DNA of 32,000 nt from Catenovulum adriaticum (GTDB lineage Bacteria > Pseudomonadota > Gammaproteobacteria > Enterobacterales > Alteromonadaceae): NCBI RefSeq assembly GCF_026725475.1, contig NZ_CP109965.1, positions 1,333,385 to 1,365,384 of the forward strand, in the 5' to 3' direction. Under the pieces are notes generated by a model. That model ran no database searches, was not told the origin of the DNA, and worked only from the letters and a program-made list of their open reading frames with translations. Shown here piece by piece: positions 6,048 through 27,233 of this stretch; position 1 is the first letter of the stretch; every line of letters starts with the position of its first letter. The position numbers were made by a program, and so were the translations under genes.

Positions 6048-6842
6048 TTAATCTAACAATGAGAGCGCATTTTGCTCATGAAGCTGTTGATTTATTTGTG
6101 CCTGATGCTGAGCATCTTGATGCATAAAATGCTTAAGGTACTGTTGAACCTGGCTTTGATTGTTGTTATCAAGCTGGTTAAAAATAACGGCTTGCCAAAT
6201 TGAAGCCGGAGGCAATCTGTCTGCCAGTGCTTGCTCAATTGCGTAAGCAAAACACATGTTAGATAACTTAGGGTTTAGCCTGTTTTTTAAGTTTGTTATT
6301 TGGCTAATATCTAAGCCCATAAATAAAGATTTTAAGACCAACTGATTAAAATTAAGTTCCGGAAAATATTCAGCTGGGTAGGGGTTATTAAGTGCAATCG
6401 CTGAATACTCAATTAAGCTATTGCAACGGCAAGCTTTAATTGCCGTTTGTACGGCTAGACCTTGAGGATCAAGCCAGATTAAACTTGCTAGTAAAGCACA
6501 TTTTTCACTTTCATCGCCAAACTGATAGTAGTTTTTTAATAGTTTGGTTGTGACCTCTGTTTGTGACTCAAACGTTATTTTTTTGTCGGTTTCAAGCGCG
6601 TTTTTAATTAATAGCAGTCTAACTAACTGAGCTAAGTTTAATGCGTTAAACTCAGCTGAAAAATCAATTTCTTGGGTGAACTTTCTTTTAACAAAAACCG
6701 ATTGATTGAGTAGCTCAAGTTCTAAATCATCATGGGTTTTAGCTTGCTTAATTAGCTTAATTGCTTTTGTTAACCAAGACTGTTGTTCATCTGTTAATAA
6801 CGGCGAAAGCTGTTCGGAAATTTTTGTCACTAAATTATTCAT
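6048..6842 (-). CDS. eboA: Hypothetical protein, EboA-like by position
   Basis: 264 aa with no motif I recognise. It is translationally coupled to the upstream UbiA gene by a 2-nt gap. The call rests on operon context only. Confidence 0.45.
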   Translation of the reverse strand: MNNLVTKISEQLSPLLTDEQQSWLTKAIKLIKQAKTHDDLELELLNQSVFVKRKFTQEIDFSAEFNALNLAQLVRLLLIKNALETDKKITFESQTEVTTKLLKNYYQFGDESEKCALLASLIWLDPQGLAVQTAIKACRCNSLIEYSAIALNNPYPAEYFPELNFNQLVLKSLFMGLDISQITNLKNRLNPKLSNMCFAYAIEQALADRLPPASIWQAVIFNQLDNNNQSQVQQYLKHFMHQDAQHQAQINQQLHEQNALSLLD

Positions 6843-6844
6843 TT

Positions 6845-7753
6845 TTAGGTCATGTATAAATATTTACTTAAGATACGACAGGGTGGCAATAAAGCGAGTA
6901 CCACCAATGCCCAAATGTAATATCCGGAAATAGCCAACATTAGCGCATCGAGTGGGATTACACCAATAATCATAAACATGATCATTTTTTGAATGTTATC
7001 AGGCGTGAAGTTAAACCAAAGCGGTATTAAACGTTTCAGCATTAAAATAAGCCAAACCACAATTAAACCACTACCGATTAATTGAGTTTGAATTGATTCA
7101 CCTAATACATAAAACAGCAACATAAATAAGCTGGCTGCCGTGGCTAGCAATAATCCAGAGGTTAGCCATAATGCATTACGATTTTTAGCTTGGGTCTCTT
7201 GCTTACTCAAAAAGGTTAAGCCAGTGATATAAAACCAAATGGGTAGGGCAATTAAATAGATACTTTGAGGTAAAACTTGCTCGCTTGATTGAAACGTAAA
7301 AACAACAAAACTTGCGCCTAATAGCCAATTAAAATAACGACAAAAGCCCATCATAATAGAACCGGCTAAGCCTTCTTTAAAAACACTGTTGTAAAGCAAA
7401 ATACAAGCGGCTAACCCAAACCCAACGTAAAAAGGAATTAAATTAGGCCATGAAAAATAAGCGCTTAATAATAAACCTGCGGCCATTAAACCTAAGCCAA
7501 ACAGCCAGCCTATTTTTAGTGAGATTTGTCCGCTGGGGAGCGGTCGGTTTGCACGTTCTGCTAAATCTTCTTTGTAATCAAAGCAATCATTAAGCGCCAT
7601 ACCGCCATAATAAAAAGCGAGACTAGCCAGCACCAAAATTACTAGGCTACTGTTGACTTGACCAGAACTAGCAATTACTGAGGCCGCAATTATATTACTT
7701 ATTGCGGTTAATCCATTTGGCGCTCTAACTAGTTGTAATATCGATTTTAACAT
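6845..7753 (-). CDS. eboC: UbiA-family aromatic/polyprenyl prenyltransferase, integral membrane (EboC-like)
   Basis: 302 aa and very hydrophobic (about 8-9 TM segments). It carries the first Asp-rich motif NDCFDYKEDLAERANRPLPSG (NDxxDxxxD). Its start overlaps the upstream stop by 1 nt (TAATG). Confidence 0.85.
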   Translation of the reverse strand: MLKSILQLVRAPNGLTAISNIIAASVIASSGQVNSSLVILVLASLAFYYGGMALNDCFDYKEDLAERANRPLPSGQISLKIGWLFGLGLMAAGLLLSAYFSWPNLIPFYVGFGLAACILLYNSVFKEGLAGSIMMGFCRYFNWLLGASFVVFTFQSSEQVLPQSIYLIALPIWFYITGLTFLSKQETQAKNRNALWLTSGLLLATAASLFMLLFYVLGESIQTQLIGSGLIVVWLILMLKRLIPLWFNFTPDNIQKMIMFMIIGVIPLDALMLAISGYYIWALVVLALLPPCRILSKYLYMT

Positions 7754-16272: not shown

Positions 16273-16294
16273 AACCTCAACTCGGGTTAAGGTT
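16273..16294 (+). repeat. Solo copy of the 20-22 nt dispersed motif AACCTCAACTCGGGTTAAGGTT
   Basis: It matches 20/22 positions of the reverse complement of 27213-27233 and 16/18 positions of 26989-27006. It lies between the porin stop and the porin terminator. Confidence 0.7.
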
Positions 16295-21246: not shown

Positions 21247-22359
21247 ATGAAATTGAACACAGCTGCAGAAATAATTGAAGATATCCAGCAGGGTAAAATT
21301 GTTATATTAATGGATGATGAAGACAGAGAAAACGAAGGCGATATGATAGTTGCAGCGCAGCATTGTACCCCACAAGCAATTAACTTTATGGCGACTCATG
21401 GGCGTGGTTTAATTTGTTTAACGCTGACTAAAGACCGTTGCCAGCAACTTGATTTACCTTTAATGGTAGATCGTAATCAAGCTCAATTTGGTACTAATTT
21501 TACGTTGTCTATTGAAGCAGCCACCGGTGTAACAACAGGGATATCAGCGGCAGATCGTTCAACCACGGTTAGAGCCGCGGTCGCACGCGATGCAAAACCA
21601 GAAGATATTGTACAACCGGGTCATATTTTTCCGATTATGGCGCAAGAAGGTGGCGTGTTAAATAGAGCCGGACATACAGAAGCAGGCTGCGATTTAGCAC
21701 GTTTGGCTGGGTTGGAACCAGCTGGTGTTATCGTCGAAATTTTAAATGAAGACGGTACTATGTCGCGCCGGCCCGAGCTTGAAAAATTTGCACAAAAGCA
21801 TGATTTAAAAATTGGTACTATTGCTGATTTAATTGAATACAGAAACAATACAGAAACTACAATTGAAAAAATTGCAGAATGCAAATTACCAACTGAGTTT
21901 GGTGAATTTGACTTAATTACCTTTAAAGATACGATCGATGGTCAGGTACATTTTGCATTAAAAAATACTGAGCTAACGCCTGATAAACCCAGTTTAGTAA
22001 GGGTTCATGTTAAAGATATTTTGGCTGATTTATTAGGCTCAACCCGAGACGAAAGCAAAAATTGGACGCTGAGTCGCTCACTGGAACGAATTGCTCAAGA
22101 AGGTGGTGTGTTGCTGTTATTGGGTAAAAATGAAACGCCAGAAGAGTTAATGGCTAAAGTGAGCGGATATCAGCTTGAAGATGAAGGCAAACCAGTCCGT
22201 CGAATCGATAGCTGGCAACAGACGTCTCGCACCGTCGGTGTCGGCTCGCAAATATTATCGGCGTTAAATGTTGGCAAAATGCGTTTATTGAGCTCACAAA
22301 AAAAATATCATTCTTTAGCCGGTTTCGGTTTAGAAGTAGTTGAATACGTTGACGAATAG
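21247..22359 (+). CDS. ribB: 3,4-dihydroxy-2-butanone-4-phosphate synthase fused to a degenerate GTP cyclohydrolase II-like domain (RibBX-type)
   Basis: The N-terminal half has DHBPS motifs ([29 protein letters not shown]). The C-terminal half aligns with GCHII, but the zinc-Cys region reads [23 protein letters not shown] and contains no cysteine. Confidence 0.85.
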
Positions 22360-24913: not shown

Positions 24914-25756
24914 ATGATAGAATTAACCGCCATTGATTATAACGGACCAGAAGCGGCCGAACGATTTGTTGAATCACTTAAACAAACAGGCTTTGGAGTG
25001 CTTAAAAATCACCCGTTATCAAAAAATTTAGTTCAAGATTTATATCTGCAATGGCAGCAATTTTTTGATTCAACTCATAAATATGATTTTGAATTTACTC
25101 AGCCTAAACAAGATGGATTTTTTTCAACTAACAAAGCTGAAACTGCCAAAGGCGCACAATATCAAGATTTAAAAGAATACTTTCATTATTACCCTTGGGG
25201 TCAATGTCCGGAAGACTTAACGCAAATAACACTGGATTATTATCAAAAAGCTAATCGGTTAGCACAAACATTATTAACTTGGGTTGAAGCGGAATCTCCA
25301 AATATTGTTTCAAAGCATTATACTCAGCCCTTATCTAGCATGATTGAAAATAGCGAAAATACTTTACTGCGTATTTTGCATTATCCCCCTCTTAAAAAAG
25401 ATCAAACCATTGGTGCAATAAGAGCCGCCGCCCACGAAGACATTAATTTATTAACGGTTTTACCTGCTGCTAATGAGCCAGGCTTACAAGTTAAAACTTT
25501 AACGGGGGAGTGGCTTGATGTACCCAGTGATTTTGGTTATATAATTATTAATACTGGCGATATGTTACAAGAAGCTTCAAATGGCTACTTTCCGTCTACA
25601 ACCCATAGAGTTATCAACCCAACGGGAGCAGGACAAACCCAATCGCGCATATCAATGCCACTTTTTTTACATGCCCGGCCAGATGTAAAATTATCAGATA
25701 GATATACAGCTCAGAGTTACTTAATAGAGCGTTTAACAGAACTCGGGGTTTTGTAA
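24914..25756 (+). CDS. 2-oxoglutarate/Fe(II)-dependent oxygenase (isopenicillin N synthase-like family), substrate unknown
   Basis: 280 aa. It has the facial-triad HxD (AAAHEDINLLTV), a distal His (PSTTHRV) and an RxS 2OG-binding motif (SRISMPLF). Confidence 0.8.
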   Translation: MIELTAIDYNGPEAAERFVESLKQTGFGVLKNHPLSKNLVQDLYLQWQQFFDSTHKYDFEFTQPKQDGFFSTNKAETAKGAQYQDLKEYFHYYPWGQCPEDLTQITLDYYQKANRLAQTLLTWVEAESPNIVSKHYTQPLSSMIENSENTLLRILHYPPLKKDQTIGAIRAAAHEDINLLTVLPAANEPGLQVKTLTGEWLDVPSDFGYIIINTGDMLQEASNGYFPSTTHRVINPTGAGQTQSRISMPLFLHARPDVKLSDRYTAQSYLIERLTELGVL

Positions 25757-25765
25757 ACTTTATAG

Positions 25766-26275
25766 CAATCGTGATTTATTCATATATCAATGTTATACAA
25801 AAGCCGAAGACAGAGGGTTCAGGTAGCAGCGATTTTACATCGCGTGAAAACACGTAATCAGGTTAATTTATACATGCAAAGCTTTAAAAACGCGGGGTAA
25901 ACCCGCTGCTACGGGCTAGGTTATGGTGTCTGGTTCATGTATCAATATTATACAAAAGCCGAAGACAGACGGTTCAGGTAGCAGCGATTTTATATCGCGT
26001 GAAAACACGTAATTAGGTTAATTTATACATGCAAAGCTTTAAAAACGCGGGGTAAACCCGCTGCTACGGGCTAGGTTATGGTGTCTGGTTCACGTAACGC
26101 GATTTATTCATGTATTAATGTGATAAAAAAGGGCCCGAAGGCCCAAGGGTGTTAAGATGGTTCAGGTAGCAGCGATTTTACATCGCGTGAAAACATGTAA
26201 TCAGGCTAATTTATAACATGCAAAGCTTTAAAAACGCGGGGGAAACCCGCTGCCACTAAGCGATTTTTATGACTG
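25766..26275. repeat. Tandem array of about 3.2 structured repeat units (periods 155 and 188 bp) between convergent genes, running into the sulA 3' end
   Basis: The core GGTTCAGGTAGCAGCGATTTTACATCGCGTGAAAACACGTAATCAGGTTAATTTATACATGCAAAGCTTTAAAAACGCGGGGTAAACCCGCTGCTACGGGCTAGGTTATGGTGTCTGGTTCA starts at 25816, 25971 and 26159. Copies 1 and 2 differ at only 2 positions; copy 3 is more diverged. Each unit contains the hairpins GCGGG-n5-CCCGC and CGTG-aaaa-CACG, plus a long-range stem GTAGCAGCG/CGCTGCTAC. Confidence 0.9.
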
Positions 26276-26681
26276 TATTATTGGTTGAGTTACGCTTAGA
26301 TCCTGTTGGTTTAATCATAATACAAGCTGCATTTGAACTTTGAGCTGTTTCGATTAAGCTGTTTCTTTCAGCTTTTTCTAATTCATCAAACCAAGCTACC
26401 ACAGCACAGCATTTTCCTAACTTTAAGGCTTTTTCAGATATTTTGGCAATGTTGTCATTTGCGTGCGGATGTATAACTAACATTCTGTTTAGTTGAATAC
26501 CAGCTTGCGCTAAACGCTGTTTACTTGGCATTTTTTTTGGTGCGACAACACAAAGCCAGCGGTTATCTTCTTGTAGCCTTGCAATACCAGCCCAAAATCG
26601 CATTTCAAATAGATCACTAGTCGAGTTAGTCGAAAAGAAACGAGTATTTCTTACAGCATCAGTCAATATATAGGTATTCAT
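26256..26681 (-). CDS. sulA: SOS cell division inhibitor SulA
   Basis: 141 aa. The segment NRWLCVVAPKKMPSKQRLAQAGIQLNRMLVIHPHANDNIAKISEKALKLGKCCAVVAWFDELEKAERNSLIETAQSSNAACIMIKP aligns along its length with E. coli SulA ([31 protein letters not shown]...[22 protein letters not shown]...AANEGNAMGFIMRP). LexA boxes lie upstream. Confidence 0.85.
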   Translation of the reverse strand: MNTYILTDAVRNTRFFSTNSTSDLFEMRFWAGIARLQEDNRWLCVVAPKKMPSKQRLAQAGIQLNRMLVIHPHANDNIAKISEKALKLGKCCAVVAWFDELEKAERNSLIETAQSSNAACIMIKPTGSKRNSTNNTVIKIA

Positions 26682-26705: not shown

Positions 26706-26741
26706 GTGTATGGATATACAGTATACTGGTTTTTTATACAG
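26706..26741 (-). promoter_or_regulatory. Two adjacent LexA (SOS) boxes in the sulA promoter
   Basis: Read on the minus strand, 26741-26726 is CTGTATAAAAAACCAG (CTGT-N8-CCAG). 26721-26706 is CTGTATATCCATACAC (CTGT-N8-ACAC), embedded in TACTGTATATCCATACAC, which resembles the E. coli sulA operator TACTGTACATCCATACAGTA. The boxes are 25-60 nt upstream of the sulA ATG. Confidence 0.75.
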
Positions 26742-26988: not shown

Positions 26989-27233
26989 AACCTCAACTCG
27001 GTTTAATCAATATGTATCAAACGGCGTTTTTTCTCGGGGACTGTGTTAAATTCCTTTGCATACAACCCTATGGGTGGGGGAGACAGTGCGATGCCGGAAC
27101 CAAAGCCGAGGCTAGCTATTGACGCGTTAATTTACCTTATCCACGCAAAGAAATCTCGTTAAAAACCATGCAAGGCTGTAAGATTAAACAATTCAATTAG
27201 TTAGAATACAACACCTTAACCCGAGTTGTGGTT
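26989..27233. mobile_element. MITE-like nonautonomous element bounded by imperfect terminal inverted repeats
   Basis: The left end is AACCTCAACTCGGTTTAA (26989-27006). The right end, reverse-complemented, is AACCACAACTCGGGTTAAGGTG (27213-27233), giving 16/18 matching positions. The interior is 206 bp, noticeably more GC-rich than its surroundings, and contains no credible ORF. Related solo copies lie at 16273 and 27436. Confidence 0.5.

Follow-up and report, generated by a model that had tools for sequence, protein, structure and literature searches.

GTAG-tagged repetitive extragenic palindromes (REPs) carry an unpaired dinucleotide after the GTAG head and form head-to-head or tail-to-tail dimers, including heterodimers, whose members lie 20-100 bp apart (Di Nocera et al. 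2013; PMC3733652). The association of REPs with REP-associated tyrosine transposases (RAYTs) was defined by Nunvar et al. 2010 (PMC2817692), who also noted marine gammaproteobacteria with REPs clustered near the rayt gene; in Escherichia coli, the RAYT gene is itself flanked by BIMEs (PMC2817692). The REP Pput2 of Pseudomonas putida reads GTGGGAGCGGGTTTACCCGCGAA (Nunvar et al. 2010; PMC2817692), and the REP consensus of P. putida KT2440 is TTCGCGGGtaaaCCCGCtCCtaC (PMC11585281).

We analyzed a stretch of 32 kb (hereafter the window, meaning the whole stretch), in which a tandem array of three units is very probably a cluster of GTAG-tagged REPs with a BIME-like organization. The description of GTAG-tagged REPs by Di Nocera et al. 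2013 fits this array. One of its two modules, termed REP-A here, is nearly the P. putida REP, GT(G/A)GGAGCGGGTTTACCCGCGAA (PMC2817692, PMC11585281). As in that REP (GTAG-1 type), a GT(A/G)G head is followed by an unpaired dinucleotide, a GCGGG/CCCGC stem with a TTTA(C) loop and a CG tail, and both belong to families of extragenic, often paired and RAYT-associated elements (PMC2817692, PMC11585281, PMC3733652). They differ in the dinucleotide (CA here, not GA), in the loop, which has 5 nt here, in the host, a Catenovulum-like Alteromonadales bacterium, and in the partner, because REP-A is combined here with a second subtype whose stem is GCGAT (REP-B).

With the BIMEs of E. coli (REP/PU Y, Z1, Z2; BIME-2 arrays) the array shares two subtypes in alternating orientation, linkers of fixed length and tandem reiteration at the 3' ends of convergent genes, but in sequence the two have nothing in common except the GTAG head, and the 155-188 nt period includes a duplicated flank and a decayed terminator. 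It also resembles the REPINs of Pseudomonas fluorescens SBW25, in which inverted REPs are separated by a short spacer and can form one long hairpin, and related bacteria possess a RAYT that belongs to the same family. However, REPINs replicate as whole doublets with a spacer conserved at many loci, whereas the spacer of the array was found at this locus only. The doublet of the array is heterodimeric, and tandem duplication rather than transposition gave rise to its extra copies.

Structure of the array

The window is ordinary chromosome (zipA, metA, metH, glyA, nrdR, rib genes, nusB, thiL and pgpA are present). The array fills the gap between a gene for a 2OG-Fe(II) oxygenase on the plus strand and a gene of the SulA family on the minus strand. 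The features of the locus are as follows.

24914-25756, plus strand: 2OG-Fe(II) oxygenase gene, the left neighbor converging on the array (Pfam 2OG-FeII_Oxy, DIOX_N)
25766-25822, minus strand: left array end, with another copy of the 34-nt flank that follows the terminator and with a decayed sulA terminator (about 25798-25817; repeat search, alignment)
25823-25844, plus strand: REP-B of unit 1 (GTAG-CA-GCGAT-TTTAC-ATCGC-G); the same 22-mer is dispersed in Pseudoalteromonas
25845-25890, no strand: spacer of unit 1, 46 nt, with the small hairpin CGTG-aaaa-CACG and an A/T-rich stretch
25891-25912, minus strand: REP-A of unit 1 (GTAG-CA-GCGGG-TTTAC-CCCGC-G); an identical 22-mer stands beside a RAYT gene of Pseudoalteromonas (L046)
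25953-25972, minus strand: a decayed sulA terminator that separates unit 2 from unit 1 (alignment)
25978-25999, plus strand: REP-B of unit 2 (loop TTTAT)
26000-26045, no strand: spacer of unit 2, 46 nt
26046-26067, minus strand: REP-A of unit 2
26125-26144, minus strand: intrinsic terminator of sulA, GGGCC-TTCG-GGCCC-T6, kept in REP-less relatives
26166-26187, plus strand: REP-B of unit 3
26188-26234, no strand: spacer of unit 3, 47 nt (1-nt insertion)
26235-26256, minus strand: REP-A of unit 3 (GTGG head, loop TTTCC)
26256-26681, minus strand: sulA-like gene, 141 aa (Pfam SulA; homologs)
26706-26741, minus strand: two candidate LexA-box-like sites upstream of sulA, CTGTATATCCATACAC and CTGTATAAAAAACCAG (read from the sequence)

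The three near-identical cores between convergent genes that a preliminary description of this locus had reported are present, with spacings of 155 and 188-189 nt in a repeat search (TRF gave a period of 155 nt with 2.1 copies and 96% matches at 25779-26096). Copies 1 and 2 are the same at all but two of 122 positions (25838 and 25859), and copy 3 departs from copy 1 in a few substitutions and a 1-nt insertion. The fourth partial unit proposed earlier does exist, but it is a partial flank (25766-25822) and not a partial core: it consists of a further copy of the 34-nt flank and a decayed copy of the terminator. Every hairpin of the preliminary description was recovered in its place, as was the minus-strand terminator, GGGCC-ttcg-GGCCC followed by T6, at 26125-26144. 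For the oxygenase gene, no intrinsic terminator was visible on the plus strand in a terminator scan.

Each unit is a head-to-head heterodimer of two GTAG-tagged REPs with the GTAG heads outside. Read on the minus strand, which is the strand of sulA, every core contains GTAGCAGCGGGTTTACCCCGCG (REP-A), a spacer of 46-47 nt and the inverted CGCGATGTAAAATCGCTGCTAC (REP-B). Both modules have 22 nt and a common plan, i.e., a GTAG head, the dinucleotide CA, a GC-rich stem of 5 bp, a TTTAY loop, the return stem and a G; in REP-A (GTAG-CA-GCGGG-TTTAC-CCCGC-G) the stem GCGGG/CCCGC and in REP-B (GTAG-CA-GCGAT-TTTAY-ATCGC-G) the stem GCGAT/ATCGC enclose a loop of 5 nt. All six modules carry a GT(A/G)G head, which is GTAG except in REP-A of unit 3 (GTGG). 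They follow each other in the order B-A, B-A, B-A, with 46-47 nt within pairs and 65 or 98 nt between pairs.

The structural elements that had been listed for each unit can be read in these terms. The GC hairpin GCGGG-n5-CCCGC at 25892-25906, 26047-26061 and 26236-26250, followed on the minus strand by GTTTTTAAAG, is the REP-A palindrome, and the 9-bp long-range stem GTAGCAGCG...CGCTGCTAC is formed by the two inverted GTAG heads, GTAGCAGCG and CGCTGCTAC, that face each other. The small hairpin CGTG-aaaa-CACG is present as described. The equivalent palindrome of REP-B, GCGAT/ATCGC, was missing from that list. The overlap of 3 nt between the long stem and the GC hairpin also holds, and the two are alternatives: either each REP folds alone or the two REPs pair with each other. 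A whole REP pair is a 22-nt imperfect inverted repeat, for which RNAfold gave one long hairpin in four of six folds (-31 to -34 kcal/mol; z-scores -2.0 to -3.8).

Among the open reading frames of the array, which have only 25-36 codons, none is conserved in the unit, as had been stated before. One repeated frame, MFSRDVKSLLPEPS..., varies in length by copy, with 14 codons in copy 3 and 11 in L003, a relative; as a gene, this short frame across REP-B was rejected because of its variable length between copies and the lack of a visible ribosome-binding site. A sigma-54 or sigma-70 promoter at TTTGCATG-TATAAAT in the spacer was also considered and rejected, as it has no acceptable -35 or -24 element, and the promoter scan agrees. 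In the 32-kb window, GTAG-headed GC-rich hairpins number five, all of them within the array (shuffled windows contain 1.3 on average and at most five, but scattered), and no further REP copy was found elsewhere in the window.

The REP family in Pseudoalteromonas and its transposase

The REP-B 22-mer CGCGATNNAAAATCGCTGCTAC was scanned in one genome per species and matched at least 120 stretches. Among the matches listed, it occurred in 29 Pseudoalteromonas assemblies (and in one MAG labelled Chlamydiota), with many loci per Pseudoalteromonas assembly, and the 173 copies with full flanks (175-176 in all) had 170 different flanks; the apparent abundance of REP-B in Pseudoalteromonas is partly due to selection, because REP-B was the query of the scan. 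The information content is 2 bits inside the REP-B module and drops to about 0 bits immediately outside. The dispersed module has 22-23 nt and occupies extragenic sites over hundreds of kb. Of 175 REP-B copies, 174 fall outside ORFs of 120 aa or more, though such ORFs cover 78% of the bases; among the matches listed, 69 copies are found between convergent and 9 between divergent genes. A forward GTAG hairpin stands within 130 nt upstream of 44 of the 176 copies, i.e., these are head-to-head dimers, with variable spacers. The exact REP-A 22-mer was found six times in the Pseudoalteromonas stretches listed.

GTAG-headed hairpins in the Pseudoalteromonas sample number 381, compared to 47-100 for five control tetramers; 190 of them carry the REP-B stem that was used to choose the loci, and the remaining 191 are still two to four times as many as the controls. 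Their stems include GCGAT, GCGGG, GCGGC, GCGAC, GGCGT, CCGAC, GCTAC and others, with pairing kept and TTTAY as a common loop. REP-A and REP-B are identical, letter for letter, between many Pseudoalteromonas species and the window. A targeted full-text literature search found no paper on this Pseudoalteromonas REP family.

The question raised earlier, whether the unit is dispersed or local, therefore has a twofold answer: the REP modules are dispersed in Pseudoalteromonas, and the full unit with its spacer (about 100 nt) was found only at this locus. A generic REP-like element, which would speak against a locus-specific system, is what the Pseudoalteromonas genomes contain. Thus, where the preliminary description left the choice between a multi-copy small-RNA locus and a repeat family, the repeat family stands (dispersed GTAG-tagged REPs associated with a RAYT) and the small-RNA locus is not supported. 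REPs, imperfect palindromes of 20-40 bp that can form a stem-loop and lie mostly at the 3' ends of genes, are a known class of selfish short DNA repeats, and the array is real but ordinary.

A cognate transposase of the family was identified in P. atlantica HQB-187 (L046, positions 6838-7287). This ORF of 149 aa scores 133.6 bits on the NCBIfam model REP_Tyr_transpos (cut-off 80) and 41 bits on Pfam Y1_Tnp, and it matches PDB 4ER8, the E. coli TnpArep, with E = 3e-8; judged from these matches, it is a bona fide RAYT. Upstream of the gene stands a head-to-head pair that ends in the exact REP-A 22-mer, downstream there are REPs of the GTAGCAGCG type followed by REP-A and REP-B, and the TAG stop codon of the gene lies inside a GTAG head, as at sulA. 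By homology, the enzyme would multiply REPs on single-stranded DNA, recognizing the hairpin together with the GTAG head. RAYT-annotated homologs occur not only in numerous species of Pseudoalteromonas but also in Colwellia, Zobellella, Oceanimonas and Pseudomonas; among the best 120 homologs, none is a Catenovulum-named protein, and domain searches found no RAYT in the 32-kb window. Y1-transposase-like ORFs of 320 aa (L063, L074 and L057) were rejected as the cognate enzyme, as they score below the curated cut-offs, are multi-copy and are flanked by a different hairpin (CCTACTT...AAGTAGG). For the study of REP/RAYT systems, the Pseudoalteromonas family offers two partner subtypes and a RAYT gene whose stop codon lies inside a GTAG head.

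As to the organism of the window itself, the window sequence was matched in metagenome runs only; no isolate or RNA run matched. In two of these metagenomes (X1 and X2) the organism is present at about 6.5x, and they contain a contig of 69 nt in which 39 nt separate two REP-A copies, further contigs at 4-5x in which REP-A or a head-to-head pair has other flanks, and a REP 31-mer at 14-28x. A RAYT-like fragment of 63 nt, 86% identical to the region of the catalytic tyrosine, occurs at 3-3.5x in X1, X2 and X4. In X5, a metagenome of the same study from which the organism is absent, neither REP contigs nor the REP 31-mer nor the RAYT-like fragment were found. The X1 and X2 contigs, which are similar in depth and not assignable to one genome, suggest that the window's genome has a RAYT and a small REP population of its own, with apparently few copies and not hundreds. 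The full unit had no match to other X1 or X2 contigs; one other head-to-head pair was found in X2, with a spacer of 45 nt that is not alignable to the spacer of the array. Pattern scans of the JGI metagenomes gave no matches for the spacer or for REP-A with its TTTTNAAAG tail. A contig from X4 (Logan) joins unit 1 directly to unit 3; it may be a one-unit allele or, equally, an assembly collapse through shared 31-mers, and it was left out of the evidence. The Pseudoalteromonas REP family is also found, apparently at low copy number, in a distant lineage of Alteromonadales.

The sulA locus in relatives

The nearest named relative is Catenovulum sp. 2E275 (SulA 70% and ThiL 72% identical), and ThiL of the window is only 50% identical to that of Pseudoalteromonas; on sequence identity, the genome of the window is assigned to the Catenovulum clade. 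In L003 (SulA 95% identical), the region 3' of sulA contains one full pair, the terminator and a half pair (REP-A and half of the spacer). The REP element is absent downstream of sulA in L004, L005 and L006 (SulA 82%, 70% and 74% identical, respectively), and no REPs were found in 5-8 kb of sequence from relatives with SulA identities of 70-82%. L005 and L006 keep the same terminator (TTAACACCCTTGGGCC..GGCCCTTTTTT), preceded by 12 conserved bases, CTTAACACCCTTGGGCC(TT/TG)CGGGCCCTTTTTT. The stop codon of sulA is TAA in the REP-less relatives and TAG in the window. The closer relatives sampled from the Catenovulum clade lack the REP modules at the sulA locus.

In the window, the terminator follows unit 3, which places the pair of unit 3 within the sulA 3' UTR, of which it makes up most. 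An alignment showed that units 2 and 1 are each followed by the same terminator with deletions of 12 nt and 3 nt and then by the same 34-nt flank; since the same deleted terminator and the same flank recur after both units, the array is best explained by tandem duplication of pair, terminator and flank. From the relatives, we infer a local history in three steps. One REP pair would have arrived between the sulA stop codon and its terminator in the common ancestor of the window lineage and L003, the pair would then have been duplicated in tandem together with the terminator and some 40 nt of flank downstream, as a segment of about 155-190 nt and likely by unequal recombination or slippage, and the duplicated terminators would finally have decayed. 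The locus thereby illustrates BIME-like array growth, in which a REP pair is duplicated in tandem together with the neighboring terminator.

Only unit 3 would be transcribed together with sulA, and its RNA would fold into a stable hairpin of the 3' UTR, beginning at the stop codon; units 1 and 2, which lie beyond the terminator, are probably inert. By analogy with the REPs of E. coli and Pseudomonas, the hairpin of unit 3 could shield the sulA mRNA from 3' exonucleases or hinder translation termination.

Alternative readings and the origin of the modules

The array could instead be a row of tandem small-RNA genes, each unit yielding a minus-strand transcript of 80-160 nt that ends at the hairpin and a U-run, possibly under SOS control. 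We regard this as very improbable, although the array adjoins an SOS gene, its units fold better than shuffled sequence and the minus strand has five terminator-like sites, compared to 0.8 +/- 0.9 in shuffles. The three hairpins of the units that look like terminators are the REP-A palindrome, and the T-run after it is interrupted in L003 and absent from 222 of 225 Pseudoalteromonas REPs; the sole strong terminator is that of sulA itself. Unit 3 gives two hints about the strand that contradict each other, since its long stem remains paired on the minus strand by way of a G-U pair, whereas its small hairpin stays paired on the plus strand only (G-U on the plus strand, an A-C mismatch on the minus strand). 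A scan found no promoter-like site in 25766-26275, and Rfam gave no relevant match, either at the gathering threshold over the window or at E <= 10 over the array, in agreement with the earlier failure to match the unit to an RNA family (the best matches, MIR171, sroD and the L10 leader, are at chance level). Genuine tandem pairs such as PrrF1/PrrF2 and OmrA/OmrB likewise consist of near-identical structured units of about 100-150 nt in intergenic tandem, but the units of the array lack a promoter and a terminator of their own. The unit is not kept in related species either, being absent at the syntenic site in L004, L005 and L006 (SulA 70-82%), and it has no conserved single-stranded region: what is conserved across genera is confined to the two dispersed 22-nt palindromes, with no single-stranded "seed". 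For annotation, a false lead is thereby removed, in that the tandem units are selfish or neutral palindromic repeats and not a new family of regulatory RNAs. Even less credit can be given to integron attC sites in a row, or to some other element of recombination or replication such as empty cassettes or iterons, a reading that we consider next to negligible: the units are indeed imperfect inverted repeats of about 90 nt in tandem, but RYYYAAC / GTTRRRY core sites are missing from their ends, cassette ORFs are lacking, neither an integrase nor a replication gene lies in the window, the whole array had no plasmid or phage match in blastn, and the dispersed module has 23 nt and is extragenic across hundreds of kb.

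A host function for the pair of unit 3 is compatible with the reading as a REP cluster, to which it would add. The pair might have been co-opted in the sulA 3' UTR, where it would tune SulA through mRNA stability or through stalling at termination. REPs of E. coli stabilize upstream mRNA, and for REPs near stop codons, lower translation has been reported. At this locus, the hairpin is stable, the pair stands upstream of a conserved terminator and would thus be transcribed with sulA, and the first base of REP-A is the last base (G) of the TAG stop codon, an overlap that is the same in the window and in L003. Yet the same kind of overlap occurs at the rayt gene and may therefore reflect a preference of insertion and not a function, and the relatives do without any such element. 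In unit 1 of L003, moreover, GCATG replaces GCGGG, a change that abolishes the REP-A hairpin, leaves the long stem weaker and is not compensated elsewhere; this argues against selection on the structure. On balance, we consider co-option improbable, if less so than small-RNA genes. For SOS biology, the point of interest is a possible change in SulA output through the REP hairpin next to the sulA stop codon. The consensus of the LexA box is CTGT-N8-ACAG, and each of the two candidate sites upstream of sulA, CTGTATATCCATACAC and CTGTATAAAAAACCAG, has one mismatch from it.

REP/RAYT systems are usually described as strictly vertically inherited. A recent transfer of REPs and RAYT across genera, with the array as an early colonization at low copy number and one pair perhaps drawn into the sulA 3' UTR, is a tentative idea that we hold to be rather unlikely. 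It is prompted by the letter-for-letter identity of both modules in spite of a ThiL identity of only 50%, and by their absence at the locus in the closer relatives sampled. The presence of identical REP modules in two distant genera is in any case mildly unusual.

Stop codon, terminator and upstream region of sulA

In the rayt locus of P. atlantica (L046), the GTAG head of the downstream REP contains the TAG stop codon of the Pseudoalteromonas transposase gene. The window and L003 (the sulA locus of a relative with 95% SulA identity) show the same kind of overlap between the sulA stop codon and REP-A, and in relatives that have no REP at this locus sulA ends with TAA. The overlap of stop codon and REP at both rayt and sulA may reflect an insertion preference.

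Stop codon and REP overlaps, sulA terminator and putative LexA sites
L046 7279-7306: overlap of the rayt stop codon with the REP
Window 26254-26258: overlap of the sulA stop codon with REP-A
Window 26125-26156 (minus strand), L005 4478-4508 and L006 4508-4538: sulA terminator with the 12 preceding bases, CTTAACACCCTTGGGCC..GGCCCTTTTTT
Window 26706-26741, minus strand: two LexA-box-like sites immediately upstream of sulA

L005 and L006, the REP-free sulA loci of two relatives, keep the terminator together with its 12 preceding bases despite SulA identities of only 70-74%, whereas the remaining sulA 3' untranslated region is unrelated between these loci and the window. This terminator sequence was not found in the Pseudoalteromonas loci. 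Upstream of the gene, each of the LexA-box-like sites has one mismatch to CTGT-N8-ACAG, and as sequence motifs they are consistent with SOS control of sulA, the gene that bears a REP pair in its 3' untranslated region.

REP-B loci in other genomes and possible array variants in metagenomes

In many Pseudoalteromonas loci (L013, L015, L026, L032, L087, L092, L098 and L107, among others), long stretches of repeated 7-nt units, resembling microsatellites, border REP-B; one flank has, for example, (AGCACCT)n or (CTAGGNN)n and the opposite flank (AACTCGC)n or (ATCTCGT)n. Among the matches listed in the genome scan, the only one outside Pseudoalteromonas (L119, JBEPVL010000006.1) lies on a contig of a metagenome-assembled genome labelled Chlamydiota; contamination or a binning error is the probable cause. 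A set of multi-copy ORFs resembling Y1 transposases, about 320 aa long and with a CCTACTT...AAGTAGG hairpin at their flanks, scored 20 bits with Pfam Y1_Tnp (below the cut-off) and 41.6 bits with the NCBIfam RAYT model (cut-off 80); they make up an element distinct from the GTAG REP family of the array.

Y1-transposase-like ORFs
L074 4047-5018 and 5696-6667
L057 1083-1607
L063 1-985

A 166-nt Logan contig from metagenome run X4 joins unit 1 of the array directly to unit 3 (junction 25853/26197) and skips 343 nt, which represents either a one-unit allele of another strain or an assembly collapse via shared 31-mers. Another contig, from run X1, lacks 19 nt at 26053.

Other elements in the window

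Besides the array, the window contains three copies of another short intergenic repeat, TAACCTCAACTCGG(G/T)TTAA, two of which show 95% complementarity to each other. The sole Rfam match at the gathering threshold in the window, V_AS9 (Vibrio antisense RNA AS9; score 51.3 bits, threshold 50), lies antisense within the ribBA coding region (21247-22359) and may reflect nothing beyond coding-sequence conservation.

Second repeat and Rfam match
16273-16293, plus strand: repeat copy 3' of the porin gene
26989-27003, plus strand: repeat copy between sulA and the DCC1-like gene
27213-27233, minus strand: repeat copy between the same two genes
21344-21447, minus strand: V_AS9 match
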